Shown: one piece after another, positions 6,014-18,730 of the stretch
How the letters are laid out: every line of letters begins with the position of its first letter
Numbering within the stretch: the first letter of the stretch is position 1
Source of the DNA: a virus
Reading direction: 5' to 3' (one strand)
Length of the DNA: 39,269 nt
UHGV virus genome: UHGV-0135878
The notes under the pieces: generated by a model
Told to the model about the DNA's origin: nothing
What the model saw: only the letters and a program-made list of their open reading frames with translations
Databases searched by the model: none
Made by a program: the position numbers and the translations under genes

Positions 6014-6240
6014 TGGCTGATGCAATGGATCTCGTACAGCAGCGCGTTGAAGAAGAACGCCAGCGCCATATCCGTGCTGCCCGTGCCAAAACACCGGGCG
6101 TGTCTCGCGTGCTTTGTATTGAATGTGAAGCGCCAATTCCGCCAGCACGCCGCCGCGCCATTCCTGGAGTGCAGCTTTGCATTACCTGCCAGGAAATCGC
6201 AGAGCTGAAAGGCAAACATTACAACGGAGGTGCTGTATGA
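6013..6240 (+). CDS. TraR/DksA-family C4 zinc-finger protein
   Basis: 75 aa; CxxC...CxxC (CIECEAP...CITCQ) typical of phage TraR-like proteins; start overlaps previous stop. Confidence 0.7.
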   Translation: MADAMDLVQQRVEEERQRHIRAARAKTPGVSRVLCIECEAPIPPARRRAIPGVQLCITCQEIAELKGKHYNGGAV

Positions 6241-7094
6241 GCACCATCCTGAAATGGGCGGGTAATAAAACCGCCATTATGTCCGAACTGAAAAAATACC
6301 TTCCTGCTGGCCCGCGACTGGTTGAACCTTTCGCGGGTTCTTGTGCTGTGATGATGGCGACGGATTACCCCAGCTATCTGGTTGCGGATATTAATCCTGA
6401 TTTAATCAACCTCTATAAAAAGATTGCCGCTGATTGCGAAGCGTTTATATCTCGTGCCAGAGTTTTATTTGAGGAAGCAAACAGTGAGCTGGCTTATTAC
6501 AACATAAGACAGGAGTTTAATTACTCAACTGAAATTACTGATTTCATGAAGGCGATATATTTCCTGTATCTCAATCGTCACGGTTACCGTGGTTTATGTC
6601 GCTATAACAAGAGCGGGCATTTCAACATTCCCTACGGTAATTATAAAAATCCGTATTTCCCTGAAAAAGAAATTCGCGCATTTGCAGAGAAAGCCCCGCG
6701 GGCAACGTTTATCTGCGCCAGCTTTGATGAAACGCTGGCGATGTTGAAGGCGGGGGATGTGGTGTATTGCGATCCGCCGTATGACGGTACGTTTTCCGGC
6801 TATCACACTGATGGTTTCACTGAAGATGACCAGTATCACCTGGCATCCGTTCTTGAACATCGGTCGTCAGAAGGTCATCCGGTCATTGTTTCTAACAGTG
6901 ACACATCCCTGATTCGTTCGCTGTATCGCAATTTCACTCACCACTACATCAAGGCAAAACGCAGCATCGGCGTGTCGGCTGGCGAGAGTAAATCTGCAAC
7001 AGAAATCATTGCTGTTTCCGGGGCGCGCTGCTGGGTGGGATTTGATCCTTCGCGTGGCGTGGATAGTTCTGCTGTGTACGAGGTGCGTGTATGA
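6237..7094 (+). CDS. DNA adenine methyltransferase (Dam family)
   Basis: 285 aa from ATG at 6237; DPPY catalytic motif ([10 protein letters not shown]) and N-terminal FAGSCAV AdoMet motif. Confidence 0.85.
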
Positions 7095-9505
7095 GTCATG
7101 CCGATATGAGCGACTCTAGCGGCTTTAACGAGGCCGCTGCAGCATTTTCATGGAACGGCCCGAAAAAGGCCATAAACCCTTATCTGGACCCGGCGGAAGT
7201 TGCGCCGGTTTCTGCGCTTTCAAACCTGATCACTCTGTATGCTGCCGATAACGAGCAGGAACAGCTGCGCCGCGAGGAATTGAGTGAACAGGTCTGGGAG
7301 CGTTATTTCTTTAATGAATCCCGTGATCCTGTCCAGCGCGAAATGGAGCAGGATAAGCTCATTAGTCGGGCAAAGCTGGCGCATGAGCAGCAGCGTTTTA
7401 ACCCGGACATGGTCATTCTGGCGGACGTCAGCGCCCAGCCCACCCACATCAGCAAGCCGCTGATGCAACGTATCGAATACTTCAGCAGCCTGGGCAGGCC
7501 AAAGGCTTATTCCCGCTATTTGCGTGAGACGATTAAGCCATGTCTGGAGCGACTGGATTGTGTACGCGACAGTCAGCTATCTACTTCTTTCCGTTTTATG
7601 GCAAGCCATCAAGGGCTGGAGGGCCTGCTGATCCTGCCTGAAATGAGTCAGGATCAGGTGAAACGCCTGTCCACCCTGGTAGCTGCGCATATGAGCATGT
7701 GTCTTGAGGCCGCTTGTGGTGATTTGTATACCAACGATGACGTAAAGCCAGAAGAAATCCGCAAGACATGGGAAAAGGTGGCAGCGGAAACCCTGCGTCT
7801 GGATGTTATCCCGCCTGCGTTTGAGAAACTTCGTCGGAAAAGAAACCGCCGCAAACCTGTGCCCTATGAACTCATACCGGGTTCGCTGGCACGTATGCTT
7901 TGCGCCGACTGGTGGTATCGAAAATTGTGGAAGATGCGTTGCGAATGGCGGGAAGAGCAGTTGCGTGCTGTCTGTCTGGTCAGCAAAAAAGCATCTCCCT
8001 ATGTCAGCTATGAAGCCGTGATGCATAAACGTGAGCAGCGCCGCAAGTCGCTGGAGTTTTTCCGTTCTCATGAACTGGTGAACGAAGACGGAGACACGCT
8101 GGATATGGAAGATGTGGTAAACGCCAGCAGCAGCAACCCGGCACATCGCCGCAATGAGATGATGGCCTGCGTTAAAGGTCTGGAGCTTATCGCGGAAATG
8201 CGCGGTGACTGCGCCGTTTTCTACACCATCACATGTCCGTCACGTTTCCATTCCACGCTCAATAACGGCAGGCCCAACCCGACCTGGACAAATGCGACGG
8301 TAAGACAAAGCAGCGATTATCTGGTCGGCATGTTTGCTGCATTTCGTAAGGCGATGCACAAAACCGGGTTGCGCTGGTATGGCGTACGGGTGGCTGAGCC
8401 GCACCATGACGGTACTGTGCACTGGCATCTCATGTGTTTCATGCGCAAAAAAGACCGCCGCGCCATTACTGCATTGTTGCGTAAGTTTGCCATCCGTGAA
8501 GACCGCGAGGAGCTGGGCAATAACACGGGCCCACGCTTTAAGTCTGAGCTGATAAACCCACGCAAAGGAACGCCGACAAGCTACATCGCAAAATACATCA
8601 GTAAGAACATTGACGGGCGTGGTCTGGCTGGCGAGATCAGCAAGGAAACGGGTAAATCCCTGCGTGATAACGCCGAATACGTTAATGCCTGGGCGTCTCT
8701 GCATCGTGTTCAGCAGTTCCGCTTCTTTGGTATTCCGGGGCGCCAGGCTTACCGTGAACTGCGATTGCTGGCTGGTCAGGCGGCAAGACAACAGGGTGAC
8801 AAAAAAGCAGGTGCGCCGGTACTGGATGATCCGCGTCTTGATGCCATCCTGGCTGCTGCTGATGCTGGTTGTTTTGCCACCTACATCATGAAGCAGGGCG
8901 GCGTACTGGTTCCCCGCAAATATCACCTTATCAGAACAGCTTATGAAATTAACGAAGAGCCGACTGCCTATGGCGATCACGGTATTCGTATTTATGGCAT
9001 CTGGTCACCCATTTCAGAGGGCAAGATCTGCACTCATGCAGTGAAGTGGAAAATGGTTCGTAAGGCCGTTGACGTTCAGGAGGCGGTAGCCGACCAGGGC
9101 GCTTGCGCCCCTTGGACTCGTGGCAATAACTGTCCCCTTGCTGAAAATTTGTACCAACAAGGGAAAGACAAATCAGCTGATGGGGGCTCCAGAACGGACA
9201 TTACCCGCATGGATGACAAGGAATTGCACGATTACCTGCACAGTATGAGCAAAAAAGATCGCCGGGAGCTGGCAGCAAGGTTGCGCTTGGTGAAACCGAA
9301 ACGGCGTAAAGACTACAAACAGCGAATTACAGATCATCAGCATCAGCAGCTCGTCTATGAACTGAAGTCCAGAGGATTTGATGGCAGCGAGAAAGAAGTC
9401 GATTTGCTCCTTCGCGGTGGCAGTATTCCGTCAGGAGCAGGCTTGCGTATCTTCTATCGGAACCAGCGTTTGCGGGAAGATGATAAGTGGCGGAACCTGT
9501 ATTAA
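7091..9505 (+). CDS. A: Replication initiation endonuclease (P2 gpA family, rolling-circle HUH nuclease)
   Basis: 804 aa; HUH-type motif (TVHWHLMCF) and tyrosine motif (YIAKYISK); position after early genes. Confidence 0.85.
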
Positions 9506-9599
9506 TTACGCGGGTTAACAATTCGTGCTCTTAATAATACCAGGCATATCAGGCTGATGAACGTAAAAAAACGTTTTACATCAGTAAGATTATTATATA

Positions 9600-9615
9600 C
9601 TGTAAATATAAACAG
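9600..9615 (+). promoter_or_regulatory. LexA (SOS) box CTGTAAATATAAACAG
   Basis: With flanks taCTGTAAATATAAACAGtg, 17/20 match to the CTGT-N8-ACAG consensus; overlaps a likely -10 about 45 nt upstream of the 9659 start codon. Confidence 0.6.
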
Positions 9616-9658
9616 TGGTTATGTATACAGCATTTCTTGTGGTGTCATAGGAGGAAAG

Positions 9659-9847
9659 ATGCAGGACTATTTTTTGGAGTCTTTGAAGCTCCAGCGCATT
9701 GATTTTTTTCTTAAGCTTGTAGCGGCTAGTGAGTGTAGTGATGAAGAGAAGGGGCTGGCTTTGCAGTGGGTTTCTGAACTAACAGATGAACTCATGGCAA
9801 AAATCAGAACCCACGAATACAACCGCTCAATGGATGTCATCAGTTGA
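9659..9847 (+). CDS. Small SOS-controlled protein (62 aa), possible N-terminal part of a Tum-like antirepressor
   Basis: ATG at 9659 with strong RBS AGGAGGA just downstream of the LexA box; track start 9557 reads through the operator. Confidence 0.45.
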   Translation: MQDYFLESLKLQRIDFFLKLVAASECSDEEKGLALQWVSELTDELMAKIRTHEYNRSMDVIS

Positions 9848-9857
9848 GGTGACTTTT

Positions 9858-10091
9858 ATGCGCATTGAAATAATGATCGATAAAGAGCAGAAGATTAGCC
9901 AGTCTATCCTGGACGCCCTTGAATCCGAGCTTTACCGCAATCTGCGCCCCCTGTATCCCAAAACGGTAATTCGTATCCGCAAAGGTAGCTCTAACGGTGT
10001 GGAACTGACCGGACTGCAACTGGACGAAGAAAGAAAACAAGTGATGAAAATTATGCAGAAGGTGTGGGAAGACGACAGCTGGCTGCATTAA
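9858..10091 (+). CDS. DinI-family protein
   Basis: 77 aa, MRIEIMIDKE...DALESEL...WEDDSWLH resembles DinI; RBS GAGGTGA; ATG at 9858. Confidence 0.7.
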   Translation: MRIEIMIDKEQKISQSILDALESELYRNLRPLYPKTVIRIRKGSSNGVELTGLQLDEERKQVMKIMQKVWEDDSWLH

Positions 10092-10093
10092 GA

Positions 10094-10136
10094 AACGTTG
10101 CTGGCGTCTGAACTTGCTTCTGACGTCAGCAACGTT
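10094..10136. terminator. Stem-loop between convergent genes (15-bp stem with one G-T pair, 13-nt loop)
   Basis: aacgttgctggcgtc ... gacgtcagcaacgtt immediately after the DinI-like stop; no clean T-run, so terminator function is inferred. Confidence 0.4.
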
Positions 10137-10357
10137 GAACAACTAGTTTAGTGGGGCATTAGTCATGGGGTAAAATACAGTAACCATTATTTTCACTTCC
10201 GCTCAGATTTAACCGAACGTTAGTTTTGCTACGTATGATGGGCTGCAAATTACCTTTTGGGATTTGTGATAGATACGAAAATCCTATTAGATGCTTGTTA
10301 GACCGGAAGCGCCACTTCGAACGAAAAGTAATGGCCACTTATGCCGGTTTAAAAGCC

Positions 10358-10888
10358 TTAACCTTGTATAGTTATTTGAATATTTTCTTCATTGACACCA
10401 AAGTATAGGGCTAGCCCTGCTTTTGCCTCCTGAAGTGTTAACGGCTTAACTACATTTTCTTCTTCTTCTTCGTACTCATCACCCGCTTGATCGACAATCG
10501 AATTAGTCGGGGTTAATTTTGGAAGAGCTTTAAATTCCAACTTGTCAGCCTCAATGCCAATGTCTTTGAGGTTGCGATAAGAAACGGGATTCCGATTGCC
10601 ATCCCATTGTCCTGGGATGTCAATTTCAGCATAAGAATTGATGTTTATGATCCAGCGTTTAGGGTTTTCTGGAGCCCTGCTTACTCCCGAGATTCGACCG
10701 ATCATAAAAGCATGATGATGTTTTGCTTCTTGTGATCCCCAGTCCTTTCTCGAATTTTGTACACAAACTAAATATTCGTGCTTAGCTGCATGGCTGGCGT
10801 CAAGTCTCCATGCTTGGCTTCCCCCTGTGTTCAAAATCTCTGTTAAACCACGAGCAGTAAGTACAGTAATACAGTTGGTAGTAGCCAT
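10358..10888 (-). CDS. Hypothetical 176-aa protein at the P2 old/tin position (accessory gene)
   Basis: ATG at 10888; transcribed opposite to the early operon, just left of the cos-like site; acidic EYEEEEE stretch; no motif recognised. Confidence 0.6.
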   Translation of the reverse strand: MATTNCITVLTARGLTEILNTGGSQAWRLDASHAAKHEYLVCVQNSRKDWGSQEAKHHHAFMIGRISGVSRAPENPKRWIININSYAEIDIPGQWDGNRNPVSYRNLKDIGIEADKLEFKALPKLTPTNSIVDQAGDEYEEEEENVVKPLTLQEAKAGLALYFGVNEENIQITIQG

Positions 10889-11205
10889 TGAATTGTGACT
10901 CCGTCTTTTTTAGAGAAATACTATTGATGAATGTAGTTTACGTATTTTTTTATTGAGTAGTCAAGTTAGTATTCTGCTCGTTATTGGCTGTTTTTTGAGT
11001 GTTGTGAGTTAGTACTTTGTGTAGTACCTCTTGGTTTATGAGGGTTAAATCTAAGTTATGACAAAGGGAGGCAGGGGGAACGCGCAGCGCAAGGTGTACA
11101 GGAGGCCATAAGGACTCACTTGAAGTAAGAAAAGATCGATAAAGCAACAATGCATGTCTATGCCGCATGAATTCGCATGATCGTTTGAGGATCGTTTTAG
11201 CTGAG

Positions 11206-11233
11206 GCCCGCTAGGAATGGCGGGCTTTTGTTT
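11206..11233 (+). terminator. Rho-independent-terminator-like hairpin (gcccgc-8nt-gcgggc then TTTTGTTT)
   Basis: 6-bp GC stem and T-run on the + strand about 45 nt before the cos-like motif; no upstream + strand ORF. Confidence 0.35.
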
Positions 11234-11274
11234 ATGTCATGCAAGTGCATGAAAACCACTACATAAAGCGGGCA

Positions 11275-11293
11275 GGCGTGGCGGGGATACGAG
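11275..11293. other. Candidate cos (cohesive end) site, ggcgtggcggggatacgag
   Basis: First 13 nt match the GGCG(A/T)GGCGGGGA cohesive-end motif I remember for P2/186; lies in a GC-rich island within AT-rich DNA between the old/tin position and Q. Confidence 0.45.
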
Positions 11294-11658
11294 CGCGCGC
11301 ACCTTCTAATAATTACAAAGTCATTGAGATATGCAGGGGATATTCTATATTTCATTTAATCGATATACCCAACCGAGCTACTAGATTGATTGTGCAAAGT
11401 TAATCAACTAACTATTAGGTGAAAATATATTCCCAATAGTTATCATTCAGATTTATTTAATTCCTCGTTCGTATCATTTTTTATTTACCAATAAGCTGTG
11501 TGATTTTTATGTTAAATTAACGGCAATAGCATAATATGTTGTGAAAATGTGATGAGATCTACTTGATATTATTTTTATAATGGTGTTAATTGTTAGTCAG
11601 CTAAACGGTGTTACATTTTATTTTCAACGAAATTAAGTTTTTGTCATGGAGAGGCTTT

Positions 11659-12480
11659 ATGAAGGTTAGTTTTGATGTTGTTATTAAAAGTGGTGCTTAT
11701 GATGTTGATATGGATTACGCGCTTAAAACATTAGCTGGTACATCGAATGTAGTTTGCCTTTTGGCAGAAGCGATACTTCGTGGAAGAATTATTGAACGGC
11801 GTACCCATGCAAATGATATCAGAGCAAAGCTTAAACACAGTTTTCCGGGTTCTTATGGTCAAAAATTTGACATCGAGATAAATGACTCGACACTGATTTC
11901 TCGTTTGAATTCTATGGGACGTAGTGTTTTCTCTGAAGTAATGAGTTACTATATTTGTGAAGCGCTATATGTTGAGCATAATGGTTTGACAGATGCAGCA
12001 CAGAAAATCATTGATAGTTTAGTTGCAATAGAGGATGAGCTTACAAAGCGAATTCGTTCCCCACTAAAAGATATGCATAAAGTCACTACAATGAATGGTT
12101 ATAATGTTGAGTTATCTTATCGAAAACCTGGATCACCAGAAAACATTATAACGTTGACACCAGAAACTGAGATTAATATTTCAGATACTGAAATACTACA
12201 GGTTTCCCATGATATATCTGTAATCATAACTCGTTTTAATTCAATGACAGGAAATGGTCGACTTATACTTGAAGGGTATGAAGAACATGGCACTGTAGCA
12301 TTTGGATTTTATGATAATTTAAGATATGTAACAGAAAACCATAAAAGACAAATCACTCAAAACTTGCATCACAATAATGGCCTTCCATCAGATAGATGGC
12401 AATATATGAATTTAACTGTAAGTGATATGGTTCTTCCTAGTGGGGATGTTATTAAATATCTAATTCGTAATATACCTTGA
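11659..12480 (+). CDS. Hypothetical 273-aa soluble protein, first gene of accessory operon
   Basis: ATG at 11659 with RBS GGAGAGG (track start 11608 is upstream in-frame); strongly AT-rich; no motif recognised. Confidence 0.65.
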   Translation: MKVSFDVVIKSGAYDVDMDYALKTLAGTSNVVCLLAEAILRGRIIERRTHANDIRAKLKHSFPGSYGQKFDIEINDSTLISRLNSMGRSVFSEVMSYYICEALYVEHNGLTDAAQKIIDSLVAIEDELTKRIRSPLKDMHKVTTMNGYNVELSYRKPGSPENIITLTPETEINISDTEILQVSHDISVIITRFNSMTGNGRLILEGYEEHGTVAFGFYDNLRYVTENHKRQITQNLHHNNGLPSDRWQYMNLTVSDMVLPSGDVIKYLIRNIP

Positions 12481-12490
12481 TAGAGTTATT

Positions 12491-13186
12491 ATGAAAATTC
12501 ACTCTATTAAAATCTTTGCTGCATTAGTAATTATAATTACGTGGTTGAGTTATTTTGCAAAGTTTGGTGATTGGTTTAACTTCTCGAGTGATACGGCTGT
12601 TTGGGGGCAGTTTGGGGATTTTTTAGGAGGGGTGATTAATCCACTGCTTACATTTATATCTGTTGTTTACTTGATTAACTCTGTAAATCTTCAGCGAGAG
12701 GCGAACGCTAGCCTGATTGCGCTTGAAGAGTTTAAGAAAACTGAGACCAAATTTTATAACATGCTTGAGTCACAACGAAGTGGCTTCGAAAGCTTTAAAA
12801 TTGTAGATAGTGTGGATGGGAAACCTTTAGTTATCAAGGACGGTGACGCGGTTACATATATTGAGGATGTTGTTGTAGAAATGGTAATCCAAGGAAGTAC
12901 AAAAGGAGAAATCTCAAATAAAATAGGTGGAATGGATAAAGCGGATAATATATTTAGTATAGTGAGGCGCTTTCATAATATTATTAAGTTGATTAAAAGG
13001 GAAATTCCGGAAAACTTAAGAAGTGAATATTATGATAGTTTAGTTAATATGACTGAGTATAAGCAAATATGTCTTATATTAATATCAATGGAGCTTTTTG
13101 ATTGGCCTATTTTAAGTAGCATTGATGAAAGTGGTGTGTTTAATATTGAGGCATTAATGGAATATAGAAAAGCATTTAGACCATAA
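12491..13186 (+). CDS. Hypothetical 231-aa membrane protein (two N-terminal TM helices plus ~170-aa soluble domain)
   Basis: ATG 10 nt after upstream stop; hydrophobic segments at about residues 7-26 and 41-62; AT-rich. Confidence 0.65.
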   Translation: MKIHSIKIFAALVIIITWLSYFAKFGDWFNFSSDTAVWGQFGDFLGGVINPLLTFISVVYLINSVNLQREANASLIALEEFKKTETKFYNMLESQRSGFESFKIVDSVDGKPLVIKDGDAVTYIEDVVVEMVIQGSTKGEISNKIGGMDKADNIFSIVRRFHNIIKLIKREIPENLRSEYYDSLVNMTEYKQICLILISMELFDWPILSSIDESGVFNIEALMEYRKAFRP

Positions 13187-13192
13187 CTGAAT

Positions 13193-13220
13193 AAGAAACA
13201 ATGCTTAGGCATTGTTTCTT
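13193..13220. terminator. Perfect 12-bp stem / 4-nt loop hairpin between the accessory operon and portal gene 3' end
   Basis: aagaaacaatgc ttag gcattgtttctt followed by gtgtttat; sits between convergent stops at 13186 and 13231. Confidence 0.5.
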
Positions 13221-13230
13221 GTGTTTATAA

Positions 13231-14259
13231 TCAATCAAGGTTATATTTTTTGAATTGAATAATTTTATCTTCTAGCCATTCATTAACTTCTTTCATCCTT
13301 TTTTGTAATGGTAAAAGTTCATTTCGAACAAAAACATTCGCTGCCTTCTCCACATCCCCAAATCCCCCAACATTATTCGGCATTATCCCCATCATTTGTG
13401 GCGGCACACGATGCGCCGCCATCATGTCGTCCCGGCTCACGTTCTTGATATTCAGGAACTCATCCTTCGCCGCCACTTCTGACAACGGGATAATCTGAAG
13501 CCCGTCCTTTTTACCGTTAGGCGAGTACATAAACAGGTTACGGAAGTTACCAGGACCTTTGGCGCTTTTCATCGCATTGCGGAGGTTGTTCACATCCTCC
13601 TGGTTCTGCGCAGCATCGGTCATGTACATGATGAAGCCTGCATGACTGCCGTTAATGTAATACTTGCGGCGGAACAGCGTGGCGGACTCGTTGAGCAGAG
13701 CTGACGGAATGGCAGAAAGATAACCGGGCAGGCCGTAGATCTCCTGGTTGATGTCCGGTTCCATCAGATGAAAAATGCTGCCTTTCGTGAACTGATACGG
13801 CTGGGTTGTCATACCGTATTGCACAAACCAGTAGGTATCCAGGTCTAACCCGCGTCGGGTGTATTTTGCCAGCGCAGGCTCAAGGGCGATAACTTCACCG
13901 AATCGGTTCGTGCGTTTCTCCAGGTAGGCGTTACCAAATACCAGATAGTCCTGCACAAAACGCGAAAAAGCCTGCTGGCTGAGCAGCGGATGAGGGATAT
14001 AGGTACTGGTCAGAATGTTGCACTTTACTGCAATCGGGGAACTGTGATGCACGGCAGCGCGGAAGGTGCGCGCCAGTCCGTCAAAGCTGACGGGCGGCTC
14101 ATACCAACGGTCCATCTGTACGCATTCCACATAGTCCAGCAGTTCTCGGCGGTCCAGAACAGGAACGGGATCGCCGAAGCTGAATGCTTCGGCTGTAGTC
14201 TGGTTTTTAAGCTGGATCTGTTTCGTCGCCGCAGCGCGGTTCTTCTTACTCTTTCCCAT
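13231..14259 (-). CDS. Q: Portal protein (P2 gpQ family)
   Basis: 342 aa from ATG at 14259 (track 14262 is TTG); size and position match P2 Q; start overlaps P stop. Confidence 0.9.
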   Translation of the reverse strand: MGKSKKNRAAATKQIQLKNQTTAEAFSFGDPVPVLDRRELLDYVECVQMDRWYEPPVSFDGLARTFRAAVHHSSPIAVKCNILTSTYIPHPLLSQQAFSRFVQDYLVFGNAYLEKRTNRFGEVIALEPALAKYTRRGLDLDTYWFVQYGMTTQPYQFTKGSIFHLMEPDINQEIYGLPGYLSAIPSALLNESATLFRRKYYINGSHAGFIMYMTDAAQNQEDVNNLRNAMKSAKGPGNFRNLFMYSPNGKKDGLQIIPLSEVAAKDEFLNIKNVSRDDMMAAHRVPPQMMGIMPNNVGGFGDVEKAANVFVRNELLPLQKRMKEVNEWLEDKIIQFKKYNLD

Positions 14260-16025
14260 CAAAAAATCTCCACAATATTGCTGGTATTGGCGGATTCGCC
14301 CTGCAGCGGTTCGTTAAACAGTGCGTGCATTGTTGCCCAGGCCAGATCGGCGTGGCTGGCTTCTTCGCTGCGGCTGGCTTCATAGGTCGGGCGGTTGCCG
14401 CTGGCGGTGGTTGCGCGACGGATTGCCATGAATGACTGCGCAATGTCGGTGTGTCCGGCGTCAAACTCCAGACGGCGGTGGCTGATAATGTCGTAGGCCT
14501 TGAGTACCAGGGCGTTTTTAACGTTGGGATTGTAGACAAACTCCCTGACGGCAGGAAAAAACGCTTTCACGTTCTCGTAAACCCCGTGACCGACGCCGGT
14601 CGAGTCGATGCCGATATAGGTCACGTTATACTGTTCGGTCAGTTTTTTGATGGCGTCAGCCTGGGCGCGGAAGTCCATCCCGCGCCACTGGTGACGCTCA
14701 AGAATGCGGAACTTACCGCCCGGCACGGCTGGCGGTGCCACCACCACGCATCCGGCGCTGTCGCCGTTCTGTGTACCTTTTGCCGGGTCATAACCGATCC
14801 AAACCTCGCGCCAGCCAAACGGGCGCAGCGCCAGTGCATGAAAGTCGGTCCAGACTTCCCAACTGTCCACCATGCACGCCTGCAGCTCGCTGAGCGGGAA
14901 CACGGACGCGAGATCGTCCACGAACTCACACATCAGCAGGTTCTGGTATTCGTCCGGGCTGTACTCCATGCGCAACTGGTCGAGATCGAACAGGTTACAG
15001 CCGCCGCGCACCGCATCTTCCACGGTGACTATCTGGCGGTATTGCCCGTCTGCGCACAGCAGGCCGGGGGCCAGATTGTTGTGGGACAGGTCGATGTCCA
15101 CCTTATCGGCTTTGTTGCGCCCACGATTGAACAGCGCACCGGACCAGAACGGATAAGCACTGTGGGTCAGGCTGGATGGCGTGGAAAAATAGGTTTGTCG
15201 CCATTTTTTGTGAATAGCCATACCGGAAGCCACTTTGCGCAGCTCCTGAAATTTCGGTATCCAGAAATATTCATCCAGATACAGGTTGCCGTGATAACTC
15301 TGGGCCGTGCGGGCATTGGTGCCGAGGAAGTAAAGCGTGGCACCGTTAGGAAGCACCATCGGATCACCTTTCAGCTCCACCTCCACTTCTTTGGCGAAGT
15401 CGATGATGTACTGCTTAAAGACGTAGGCCTGTGCCTTGCTGGCGGAAAGGAAAATCTGGTTACGTCCGGTCAGCAGGGCGTCAATCAGGGCTTCACGGGC
15501 AAAATAGAAGGTTGCGCCGATCTGGCGTGACTTCAGCAGGTTGCGGATGCGGTTGGTTTTTCCGGCTTCCCACCAGTGGCGCTGGTAGTTGAACATGGAG
15601 GAATGGAAAATTTCTTCCAGCTTCTCAATCTGTTCATCGGTGAAAACGTTCTTTTCCGGCTGACGGCGTGGGCCTTTGTTGCGGTTGGCGACGTTAGGGT
15701 TTAAGTCGGATTCGTTGCCGCCATTGTTAAACTTGCCGATCCGCGCGTGGCGTTCCGACTGGCGCGCCAGCAGGTCAATCTCTTTGAAATCTTTCCCTTC
15801 TTTGTGCTCCTTCATAATGAGCTGGCAGTAGCGTGCGGCGGTGGTGAGCTGCATCTGATCCAGCGGCCCATAGTCACCCCACTTGTCGCGTTTTTTCCAG
15901 CTGTGAACGGTTGCAACTTTCTCGCCCAGCATTTCAGCAATGCGGGCTACGCGGTATCCCTGAAAGTACAGCAGCATGGCCTGCCGACGGGGATCGAGAT
16001 CTGCGGGTGTCAGTGTGGTGTTCAT
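14259..16025 (-). CDS. P: Terminase large subunit (P2 gpP family)
   Basis: 588 aa, ATG at 16025; divergent from capsid operon as in P2. Confidence 0.9.
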   Translation of the reverse strand: MNTTLTPADLDPRRQAMLLYFQGYRVARIAEMLGEKVATVHSWKKRDKWGDYGPLDQMQLTTAARYCQLIMKEHKEGKDFKEIDLLARQSERHARIGKFNNGGNESDLNPNVANRNKGPRRQPEKNVFTDEQIEKLEEIFHSSMFNYQRHWWEAGKTNRIRNLLKSRQIGATFYFAREALIDALLTGRNQIFLSASKAQAYVFKQYIIDFAKEVEVELKGDPMVLPNGATLYFLGTNARTAQSYHGNLYLDEYFWIPKFQELRKVASGMAIHKKWRQTYFSTPSSLTHSAYPFWSGALFNRGRNKADKVDIDLSHNNLAPGLLCADGQYRQIVTVEDAVRGGCNLFDLDQLRMEYSPDEYQNLLMCEFVDDLASVFPLSELQACMVDSWEVWTDFHALALRPFGWREVWIGYDPAKGTQNGDSAGCVVVAPPAVPGGKFRILERHQWRGMDFRAQADAIKKLTEQYNVTYIGIDSTGVGHGVYENVKAFFPAVREFVYNPNVKNALVLKAYDIISHRRLEFDAGHTDIAQSFMAIRRATTASGNRPTYEASRSEEASHADLAWATMHALFNEPLQGESANTSNIVEIF

Positions 16026-16167: not shown

Positions 16168-17001
16168 ATGACAGTGAAAGCAAAGCGTTTTCGCATCGGG
16201 GTGGAAGGTGCCACTACCGACGGACGCGAAATCCAGCGTGAATGGCTGGAACAGATGGCAGCCAGCTACAATCCGGCGGTGTACACCGCGCTGATTAACC
16301 TTGAGCACATCAAGTCTTATCTTCCGGACAGCACCTTTAACCGCTACGGCAAGGTGACGGCGCTGTTTGCTGAAGAAATCACGGAAGGTCCGCTGGCAGG
16401 CAAGATGGCACTGTATGCCGACGTTGAGCCAACGGAGTCCCTGGTGGAACTGGTGAAAAAAGGCCAGAAATTATTCACCTCTATGGAAGTCAGCCCGAAG
16501 TTTGCTGATACGGGCAAAGCCTACCTGGTCGGCCTGGCTGCCACTGATGATCCCGCCAGTCTGGGTACGGAAATGCTGACATTCAGCGCCAGTGCAGCCC
16601 ATAACCCGCTGGCAAACCGCAAGCAGAATCCCGCCAATCTTTTTACCGCTGCAGAGGAAACGGTGATCGAACTGGAAGAAATCCAGGAGGACAAGCCGTC
16701 CCTGTTTGCCCGCGTCACGGCGCTGTTCACCAAAAAAGAGCAGTCCGATGATGCCCGGTTCTCTGATGTGCATAAGGCCGTGGAACTGGTCGCCACTGAG
16801 CAGCAAAACCTGAGCACGCGCACCGAAAAATCCCTGTCTGAGCAGGAAGAACGCCTGTCTGAGATGGAGACTGCCCTGCAGGCACAACAAGCCGCCTTTA
16901 ACGAACTGGTGGATAAGCTGAGTCATGAAGATAGCCGCCAGGACTACCGCCAGCGTGCAACAGGCGGTAACGCCCCCGCTGACACTCTGACCAATTGCTG
17001 A
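16168..17001 (+). CDS. O: Capsid scaffolding protein (P2 gpO family)
   Basis: 277 aa, ATG at 16168; first gene of rightward capsid operon. Confidence 0.85.
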   Translation: MTVKAKRFRIGVEGATTDGREIQREWLEQMAASYNPAVYTALINLEHIKSYLPDSTFNRYGKVTALFAEEITEGPLAGKMALYADVEPTESLVELVKKGQKLFTSMEVSPKFADTGKAYLVGLAATDDPASLGTEMLTFSASAAHNPLANRKQNPANLFTAAEETVIELEEIQEDKPSLFARVTALFTKKEQSDDARFSDVHKAVELVATEQQNLSTRTEKSLSEQEERLSEMETALQAQQAAFNELVDKLSHEDSRQDYRQRATGGNAPADTLTNC

Positions 17002-17017
17002 TGGAGCACAAAACCCG

Positions 17018-18076
17018 ATGAAGAAGAATACCCGCTTTGCTTTTAACGCTTACCTGCAGCAGCTGGCGCGTCTGAACGGTGTGGCAGTTGAAGAACTGTC
17101 CAGCAAGTTCACCGTCGAACCGTCCGTGCAGCAGACGCTGGAAGACCAGATCCAGCAGTCCGCCGCTTTCCTGACACTGATTAACGTCACGCCAGTGACT
17201 GAGCAGTCCGGTCAGCTGCTGGGGCTGGGTGTTGGCAGCACCATTGCCGGAACCACTGACACCACCGCGAAAGAGCGTGAACCTGTCGATCCGACGCTGA
17301 TGGTCGATGTGGAATATAAATGCGAGCAGACCAACTTTGACACGGTGCTGACCTACGCGAAGCTGGACCTGTGGGCGAAGTTTCAGGATTTCCAGGTGCG
17401 TATCCGTGACGCCATCGTGAAACGTCAGGCACTGGACCGCATCATGATCGGCTTTAACGGCGTGAAGCGCGCGAAAACCTCTAACCGTAGCGAAAACCCG
17501 CTGCTGCAGGATGTGAACAAAGGCTGGTTGCAGAAAATCCGTGAGGATGCACCGGATCACGTCATGGGCAGCACCACCACGGGCGGTGAAACCACACCGG
17601 GTACGGTGAAAGTCGGGAAAGGTGGCGAATATGCCAACCTGGACGCCGTGGTGATGGATGCCGTCAATGAGCTTATCGACGTGGTCTATCAGGACGATGA
17701 CGATCTGGTGGTGATTTGCGGGCGTGAACTGCTGTCTGACAAGTATTTCCCGCTGGTCAACAAAGAGCAGGAGAACAGTGAAAAAATGGCTGCCGATATG
17801 ATCATCAGTCAGAAACGCATGGGGGGCTTGCAGGCCGTGCGTGCGCCATTCTTCCCGCCGAATGCGCTGCTGATCACCCGTCTGGATAACCTGTCCATCT
17901 ACTGGCAGGAAGACACCCGCCGCCGTTCAGTTATCGACAACCCGAAACGTGACCGGATTGAAAATTTTGAATCCGTTAACGAAGCCTATGTGGTTGAAGA
18001 CTACCGCTGCGCTGCACTGGTGGAAAACATCCAGATTGGCGATTTCAGCGCCGCTGCAGCAGAAACCGGAGCGTAA
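17018..18076 (+). CDS. N: Major capsid protein (P2 gpN family)
   Basis: 352 aa, size and order as P2 N. Confidence 0.9.
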   Translation: MKKNTRFAFNAYLQQLARLNGVAVEELSSKFTVEPSVQQTLEDQIQQSAAFLTLINVTPVTEQSGQLLGLGVGSTIAGTTDTTAKEREPVDPTLMVDVEYKCEQTNFDTVLTYAKLDLWAKFQDFQVRIRDAIVKRQALDRIMIGFNGVKRAKTSNRSENPLLQDVNKGWLQKIREDAPDHVMGSTTTGGETTPGTVKVGKGGEYANLDAVVMDAVNELIDVVYQDDDDLVVICGRELLSDKYFPLVNKEQENSEKMAADMIISQKRMGGLQAVRAPFFPPNALLITRLDNLSIYWQEDTRRRSVIDNPKRDRIENFESVNEAYVVEDYRCAALVENIQIGDFSAAAAETGA

Positions 18077-18079
18077 CCC

Positions 18080-18730
18080 ATGAGCCTGAGTCCAGCACGG
18101 CAGCATCGCCTGCGCGTTCAGGCTGAACAGGCCGCCCGCGAGGGCGGCAGTGTTCGCCACGCGTCGGGCTATGACCTGATGCTGCTGCAACTGGCGGAAG
18201 ACCGCCGCCGTCTCAAGGGTGTTCAGTCCACGGTCAAAAAAGCGGAAATCAAGGTGGAGCTGCTGCCGAAGTACGCCGCCTGGGCAGAGGGTGTCCTGGC
18301 TGCCGGAGGCGCACAGCAGGATGACGTGCTGATGTACGTGATGCTGTGGCGCATTGATGCCGGAGATTATGCCGGGGCGCTGGAGATCGGGCGTCACGCC
18401 CTGCGTCATGGCTGGGTGATGCCGTTAGGTAACCGCAACGTGCAGACCGTGCTGGCAGAGGAAATGGCAGATGCAGCCCAGAGCGCAATGCTTGCCGCCA
18501 CCGGCTTTGATGCCGATCTGTTGCTGCAGACGCTGGAGCTGACAGACGGTCTGGATATGCCGGACCAGTCACGGGCGCGTCTGCATAAAGCGATTGGCGC
18601 TGTCCTGAGTGAAAGCAATCCGGCTTCCGCCCTTAATCATCTCAACCATGCGTTACAGCTCGATCCCCGCTGTGGCGTGAAAAAAGACAAACAGCAGCTG
18701 GAGCGCAGACTGCGCAATGACAGCCGCTGA
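18080..18730 (+). CDS. M: Terminase small subunit (P2 gpM family)
   Basis: 216 aa, position after N. Confidence 0.8.
   Translation: MSLSPARQHRLRVQAEQAAREGGSVRHASGYDLMLLQLAEDRRRLKGVQSTVKKAEIKVELLPKYAAWAEGVLAAGGAQQDDVLMYVMLWRIDAGDYAGALEIGRHALRHGWVMPLGNRNVQTVLAEEMADAAQSAMLAATGFDADLLLQTLELTDGLDMPDQSRARLHKAIGAVLSESNPASALNHLNHALQLDPRCGVKKDKQQLERRLRNDSR

Follow-up and report, generated by a model that had tools for sequence, protein, structure and literature searches.

A P2/186-type cos site in an apparently intact Fels-2/SEN8-type prophage, with a conserved hairpin that probably doubles as a terminator

The stretch of DNA analysed here, 39,269 nt long and referred to throughout as the window, carries a complete-looking prophage of the Fels-2/SEN8 type (Felsduovirus) of the P2 family, with its cohesive-end site (cos). 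The window is collinear with Salmonella phage SEN8 from cII to gpD, its + strand has the orientation of the P2 map, and gpA, Q, P, O, N and M are intact full-length open reading frames in P2 order, syntenic with SEN8. The cos region lies between gpA, at the replication end, and the divergent Q-P and O-N-M packaging genes, as expected for the P2 family, and is bordered on both sides by cargo genes. The main features are:

7091-9505: gpA
9600-9615 (within 9598-9617): LexA box (CTGT-N8-ACAG), TACTGTAAATATAAACAGTG, upstream of a small ORF (PHROG 698) and a DinI/tum-like gene
9598-10136, + strand: rightward SOS operon pointing at cos, comprising the LexA box, the small ORF and the DinI/tum-like gene (DinI by Pfam and PHROG)
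10094-10136, + strand: stem-loop of 15 bp, lacking a U-run, immediately past the DinI-like stop (10091)
10145-11150, - strand: right-end cargo module, the 176-aa gene and its upstream region
10358-10888, - strand: the 176-aa gene (PHROG 37247)
11151-11300, + strand: conserved cos block (BLAST homology limits; column conservation)
11275-11293, + strand: predicted 19-nt cohesive end, GGCGTGGCGGGGATACGAG (aligned to the annotated P2 cosL and 186 cos; equal to the putative cos of SEN8)
11301-13230, + strand: left-end cargo module, a two-gene operon
11660 or 11608 to 12480 (273 or 290 aa) and 12491-13186 (231 aa), + strand: the operon genes (PHROGs 13337 and 8999)
13231-14262, - strand: portal gpQ (Pfam, PHROG)
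14259-16025, - strand: large terminase gpP (Pfam, PHROG)
16168-18730: O, N and M
18080-18730, + strand: small terminase gpM (Pfam Phage_term_smal, E = 2e-40; syntenic with gpM of SEN8)

The rightward operon corresponds to p95, tum and t95a of phage 186, in which the same LexA-controlled tum/DinI operon points at cos, and the LexA box upstream of the DinI/tum-like gene suggests SOS-induced antirepression as in 186 (p95-tum). The stem-loop that follows the DinI-like stop is conserved in relatives and is placed like the partial terminator t95a of 186.

A preliminary description of this DNA, made from the letters alone, had taken the 13-mer GGCGTGGCGGGGA at 11275-11287 for the start of the 19-nt cohesive end of P2 and 186. 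This 13-mer occurs on the + strand as the sole exact copy in the window, and it opens the 19-nt element GGCGTGGCGGGGATACGAG at 11275-11293. The GenBank records of P2 and 186 annotate the cohesive ends at bases 1-19, as GGCGAGGCGGGGAAAGCAC and GGCGTGGCGGGGAAAGCAT. For comparison with P2, 186 and SEN8, the right and left ends of each record were joined and the alignments with the window were anchored on the cut, giving these identities:

SEN8: 34/36 at -36 to -1, 19/19 in the 19-mer, 7/7 at +19 to +25, 78/88 at -124 to -37
186: 29/36 at -36 to -1, 15/19 in the 19-mer, 6/7 at +19 to +25, 43/88 at -124 to -37
P2: 26/36 at -36 to -1, 14/19 in the 19-mer, 6/7 at +19 to +25, 33/88 at -124 to -37

The proposed identity is thus borne out: the window is collinear with the annotated ends of both P2 and 186, with the flanks in register, and on this anchored alignment the predicted cohesive end is the whole of GGCGTGGCGGGGATACGAG. 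By homology, the nicks are predicted between 11274 and 11275 on the top strand and between 11293 and 11294 on the bottom strand. The first 13 nt of the end are shared with 186 (Eganvirus), which differs at end positions 14, 16, 17 and 19. SEN8 is closer still, in that its record starts exactly at GGCGTGGCGGGGATACGAG with bases 1-19 labelled 'putative cos site'; the SEN8 genome announcement prints the identical 19-mer, its cos having been assigned by annotation and not by end mapping. The P2-type core flanks are also in place, TGCAT.AAAACC...AAGCGGGC before the end and GCGCGC after it, and these columns are invariant in 43 + 73 aligned sites. Among 122 cos sites sampled by a degenerate pattern scan of IMG/VR (viral contigs), GGCGTGGCGGGGATACGAG is the commonest variant (43 sites, which we call the class). 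BLAST searches with the cos block matched 96-103 phage records from Klebsiella, Yersinia, Salmonella and Escherichia, with E-values down to 7e-63, and the 150-bp block was matched in 1271 of 5426 complete E. coli genomes (1276 E. coli records). By its sequence, then, the region is a P2/186-type cos, already published, very common, and in the expected place.

The limits of the conserved block can be drawn closely. BLAST homology to phages and to E. coli starts at 11151 and stops at 11300-11301, and column conservation among 42 distinct same-class sites, aligned on the cut, goes up at -124 from about 0.4 to 0.85-1.0 and drops sharply past +25; two independent sources therefore agree on the bounds -124 to +25. 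Besides the 19-nt end, the block takes in 124 bp of right-end sequence and 7 bp (CGCGCGC) of left-end sequence. The preliminary description had placed cos in a GC-rich island at 11040-11300. Relative to the flanks this is correct, since GC content is 0.506 over that interval and 0.533 over 11151-11300, against 0.32 and 0.28 in the flanks (range 0.28-0.34). The phage backbone, however, has the same composition as the cos block (0.53-0.54; gpA 0.53, Q-P 0.54), so the apparent enrichment of the block is due solely to its two AT-rich flanks of swapped-in cargo, and 11040-11150 is part of the 176-aa cargo module and lies outside the conserved part. Two short ORFs span cos, of 52 aa (11197-11355, - strand) and 54 aa (11239-11403, + strand); they are probably spurious calls. 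Several public phage records annotate a 'hypothetical protein' over the homologous stretch.

The bulk of the block lies on the right-end side of the cut, and four elements can be recognised in this arm (bracketed positions are relative to the cut):

11153-11182 (-122 to -93), + strand: three direct GCATG boxes (ATGCATG, CCGCATG, TCGCATG), candidate terminase-recognition repeats
11181-11195 (dyad centre about -89), + strand: GATC-N7-GATC pair, conserved in the class
11203-11236 (centre about -59.5), + strand: central dyad and hairpin, from the fold, class conservation and a family-wide dyad
11237-11250 (centre -30.5), + strand: CATGCA-NN-TGCATG palindrome, with the AAAACC...AAGCGGGCA core between it and the cut

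Within the class, these four elements gave the top dyad scores among the 360 centres tested. The GCATG boxes are near-invariant there, with matching GCAT boxes kept in P2, in 186 and in every other cos class. The boxes, the palindrome and the central dyad all persist in those other classes, which provided 68-73 distinct sites according to the length of flank demanded. In all classes the palindrome outscores every other dyad, with 5.8/6 and 4.5/6 pairs over a background of about 1.5; it is located at or just beyond the upstream edge of the 55-bp P2/P4 cos core of Ziermann & Calendar 1990 (as cited in PMC5694545). The central dyad scores 5.5/6 in the class, where the background is 1.5 +/- 0.6 to 0.9, and 3.35/6 in the other classes, where the background is 1.48 +/- 0.59. 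Its consensus in the other classes is CGCCAGnnCTGGCG, which 186 matches exactly. The motif CAGnnCTG stands exactly at -63 in 38 of the 43 class members; of the seven other cos classes, five have it at -63 as well, and wherever it occurs outside the class it is nearly always at that position. Across the family, 62% of cells at the central dyad are paired in register, compared with 27-47% when the partner is slid. This is modest support for the dyad, mainly as a sequence motif. P2 has no recognisable dyad at -59.5 in the cut-anchored comparison, so the dyad is not universally required.

The dyad centres at -30.5, -59.5, -89 and -117.5 are spaced by about 29 bp, a periodicity that hints at an array of binding sites for an oligomeric small terminase; gpM is the presumed reader of the right arm. 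In relatives, the central dinucleotides of both palindromes, at 11237-11250 and 11211-11220, flip to their complements (CATGCA-GG/CC-TGCATG; CCAG-AA/TT-CTGG), the pattern expected of hairpin-templated loop inversion. The two GATC sites are 11 bp apart, and the phage itself encodes a D12 (Dam-type) adenine methylase (6177-7094).

Does the central dyad belong to the packaging signal at all? According to the literature, P4-like satellites have just cos in common with their helpers. One sampled locus (L084) is such a satellite, with an integrase and Psu, and it retains both the boxes and the central dyad, as do seven more hits without Q or gpA. This retention argues that the dyad is part of the packaging signal, and together with the fixed position in the conserved block it fits the earlier suggestion that the hairpin might have such a role. 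Five sampled sites, L084 and four others (L007, L052, L082, L100), share the end variant GGCGTGGCGGGGAGAGCAT, and all are without Q and gpA nearby; among the sampled sites there is no obvious satellite with the ATACGAG variant.

The same dyad forms a hairpin on the + strand. Its core stem spans 11206-11225 and is extended to 11203-11228 by G-U and A-U pairs; the loop is GGAA, and the tail TTTTGTTT ends at 11236, the T-run being at 11226-11236. The hairpin and T-run that had been described at 11206-11233 are confirmed by a terminator scan (11 pairs, 6 of them G-C) and by folding, which gives -22.1 kcal/mol (z = -3.1 against dinucleotide shuffles, 2 of 200 shuffles folding as well). A GC-rich stem-loop with a U-run directly after it has the form of a rho-independent terminator. 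Within the class 91% of cells are paired, and a simple test for TTT 3' of the dyad finds the T-run in 38/43 members, as against 2/72 of the other sites. A strict terminator rule is passed by 33/43 class members and by 4/69 other-class loci, three of these four having a DinI-like gene about 465 bp upstream. About 10 of the 43 fall short of the strict rule, and in one subgroup the T-run is taken up by a longer stem. The covariation among class members is weak, with two cells showing compensatory changes and 19 of 500 shuffles reaching the observed score; with so little variation, RNA structure is inseparable from plain sequence conservation.

What would such a terminator terminate? In the twelve compact relatives, there is no other terminator-like site between the DinI stop (-207) and the cut, and the cos hairpin passes the strict rule in 11 of them; the DinI stop is followed in these relatives by a long stem-loop without a U-run, resembling t95a of 186. 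At least nine relatives within the class have + strand cargo ORFs whose stops fall between -173 and -117; in most cases the terminator-like site encountered first beyond the stop is the cos hairpin (in one, L106, the dyad fails the strict rule). The preliminary description had remarked that no + strand gene lies upstream of the hairpin. None is adjacent in the window, where the nearest is the DinI-like gene with its stop at 10091, about 1.1 kb away, and the - strand 176-aa gene lies between; in relatives, in contrast, a co-oriented gene ends 45-135 nt upstream (135 for DinI, 45-100 for cargo ORFs). A 1-kb module with a convergent gene (about 10145-11150) has replaced the short spacer, and the hairpin thus looks orphaned here. 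With the convergent gene in front of it, a terminator role in the window would be limited to read-through from 1.1 kb upstream.

Judged from its form and its setting in relatives, the hairpin probably acts as an intrinsic terminator on any rightward transcription that enters cos. A more specific proposal is that of a dual use, in which a packaging dyad also serves, in the Felsduovirus class only, as terminator for the right-end hotspot genes, insulating cos, the left-end cargo and Q-P from SOS transcription. We put this forward tentatively, at somewhat less than an even chance. Terminators outside cos, in the zone from -300 to -125, are found in 7/43 class loci and 15/69 others, which is not clean as complementarity, and such a complementarity of inside and outside terminators is seen only among loci with a DinI-like gene upstream.

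The most serious alternative is that the hairpin acts purely as DNA, as a packaging element that binds terminase or a host factor or bends the site, with an incidental T-run that terminates nothing. The distance of the dyad from the cut is fixed in the cos classes and in the P4-like satellite, the dyad sits inside a sharply bounded block, and it takes its place in the 29-bp series of dyads, all of which speak for such an element. In addition, other cos classes have a terminator look-alike at the box dyad near -116, so a hairpin with a T-run can arise in cos for reasons other than transcription. On the other hand, the T-run and the long GC stem are peculiar to one class, the one in which relatives carry no further terminator behind the rightward operon. 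Moreover, the inner dyad CCAGnnCTGG is degraded to CTAGGAATGG in the window, yet the RNA stem is preserved through a U-G pair and the GGAA loop. Considering both sides, we regard a purely DNA-level role as rather unlikely.

It is improbable that this cos is a relic in a defective prophage that is never cut. The integrase differs from that of SEN8, a point in favor of a relic, but the packaging genes are all full-length in a prophage collinear with plaque-forming SEN8 over the interval given above. Another E. coli genome has a cos block with 100% identity to this one, which keeps the class consensus at every invariant position.

A still less probable reading, raised in the preliminary description, is that the hairpin ends an independent small RNA starting between the 176-aa gene and cos. 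The window has no co-oriented gene adjacent and 260 bp of non-coding DNA upstream, but the DNA upstream of 11151 is cargo that varies among relatives, in which protein-coding genes fill the space, whereas the hairpin is conserved. No + strand promoter-like site was found within 10889-11200, and an Rfam scan of 10700-11800 at a permissive threshold returned two meaningless lncRNA matches only; the small-transcript idea was rejected on these grounds. Finally, a chance match of the 13-mer to the P2 cohesive end can be dismissed: with up to two mismatches it is not rare in a GC-balanced 39-kb window (three matches against 0.88 expected, just mildly unusual by itself), but collinear homology over about 150 bp, shared with phages and E. 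coli, the cut-anchored alignments and the expected position between gpA and Q-P refute that reading.

Taken as a whole, the reading that we favor, and hold to be very probable, is that an apparently intact P2-family prophage of the Fels-2/SEN8 type has its cos here and that the hairpin is a cos dyad that most likely also acts as a terminator; the terminator and binding roles are inferred. The cos feature is ordinary and already known; its hairpin is a conserved element that in this class probably has a second function in termination. Given the homology with P2 and 186, terminase (gpM plus gpP) would recognise a signal of about 150 bp at 11151-11300, mostly on the right-end side and made up of the three GCATG boxes, the GATC pair, the central dyad and the palindrome, and would place staggered nicks before 11275 (top) and after 11293 (bottom) to leave 19-nt 5' cohesive ends. 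In this cos class alone the central dyad has been lengthened to a GC-rich stem with a T-run, and the resulting hairpin, most likely a rho-independent terminator, would stop rightward transcription from the LexA-controlled DinI/tum-like operon and from + strand cargo. Termination at this point would keep transcripts from crossing cos into the left-end cargo and from running antisense into Q-P.

The exact predicted cos fixes the virion map of the prophage. From the cos identity and the P2 map convention, the virion right end should carry gpA, the DinI-like gene and the 176-aa cargo gene, and the left end the two-gene cargo operon followed by Q/P, in line with the arrangement of the 176-aa gene and the operon proposed earlier. 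The two-gene operon (11608-13186) is AT-rich, with a GC content of 0.34. A terminator-like 14-bp stem-loop at 13191-13222, between the operon end (13186) and the Q stop (13231), is placed like tQ of P2 and tW of 186.

The cargo on the two sides of cos has moved independently. Homology to compact relatives breaks at about 10145, some 10 bp past the DinI stem-loop, which marks the insertion point of the right-end cargo, and the breakpoints at cos itself are 11150/11151 and 11300/11301; the closest relatives carry different cargo. Eight E. coli genomes share 10901-11300 at 97-100% identity and have different DNA after 11300, in one case with an ATP-dependent nuclease, and E. coli Q5 has the same cos and two-gene operon with other right-end cargo. 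Since the eight genomes share the right side only and Q5 the left side only, the flanks are exchanged independently, with the 150-bp block always kept. In E. coli 1297KP an ATP-dependent nuclease occupies the slot of the left-end operon.

The preliminary description had called cargo between cos and Q atypical, and this does not hold. The cos-to-Q interval has been reported as a hotspot for foreign genes since 1996 (Dodd & Egan 1996, with retrons Ec67 and Ec86, and Nakayama 1999, both as cited in PMC5694545; see also PMC7826664), and Rousset et al. 2022 described the gpA-gpQ interval around cos as a defence hotspot of P2-like phages. Among the 30 same-class loci with detectable Q, 25 have more than 500 bp (0.6-3.4 kb) from cos to Q; most P2-class loci have a compact 203 bp. 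The position is unusual only against P2 and 186 themselves. As in the gpA-gpQ hotspot (Dodd & Egan 1996; Rousset et al. 2022), variable genes abut cos on both sides and the modules are exchanged independently; the cargo of the window differs in matching no known defence model (PADLOC). The 176-, 290- and 231-aa proteins had no Pfam, PADLOC or NCBIfam match, and no anti-phage system was recognisable among them. The location of both modules in a well-known exchange hotspot flanking cos is nonetheless a reason to regard them as defence candidates.

How does this cos compare with other well-known sites? SEN8 and other Felsduovirus members (Fels-2, SopEPhi, RE-2010) share the gene order of the window and likewise have cargo to either side of cos, but with different genes in both places. 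SEN8 and the window differ by three substitutions in the hairpin, within its inner dyad and loop (CCAGAACTGG in SEN8, CTAGGAATGG in the window). In 186 the same boxes, central dyad (CGCCAGAGCTGGCG) and palindrome are found at distances equal to those in the window, but in 186 and 186-type loci the dyad lacks a T-run and the terminator t95b lies outside cos, at -189 to -165. In 186 itself t95b is 161-188 bp before the record end, and its sequence is unrelated to the window hairpin. Homology of the hairpin to t95b was therefore rejected, as both position and sequence differ, and it could be a functional analogue at most. The 186 sequence just upstream of t95b (ttgaacaacgagcc..gcgaggcgttagc) is also present in the compact Fels-2-type relatives, where it runs into the first GCATG box.

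With P2 and P4 the window shares a 19-nt 5' cohesive end, predicted here, the AAAACC...AAGCGGGC core and GCGCGC after the end, at the lower identity already given for P2 (14/19 and 26/36). The right end of P2 carries old and tin, transcribed away from cos, and Q follows 187 bp after cos with no cargo. The lambda cos (cosQ-cosN-cosB, with R sites and the I1 IHF site) offers an analogy of layout only, a nicking site flanked on one side by small-terminase repeats and an intervening element. The two sites have no sequence relation, the predicted overhang is 19 nt against 12 nt in lambda, and the putative recognition arm of the window belongs to the right end, so that the cut lies between it and the terminase genes.

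These findings leave the current understanding of P2-family packaging unchanged. For practical purposes, the 150-bp block is a ready-made minimal packaging signal for the design of cosmids or transducing particles with Fels-2-type helpers. If the dual-use proposal is true, the natural cargo swaps amount to a deletion series that delimits a functional cos of 150 bp (-124 to +25). A terminator embedded in cos, should it be genuine, would account for the exchange of cargo up to the very edge of cos with no terminator of its own.

In one locus (L091), gpA and DinI are 82% and 65% identical to those of the window and Q only 64%, and its cos belongs to a different class (ATAGCAT). This single case suggests that the cos class travels with the packaging genes, though most of cos lies on the gpA side.
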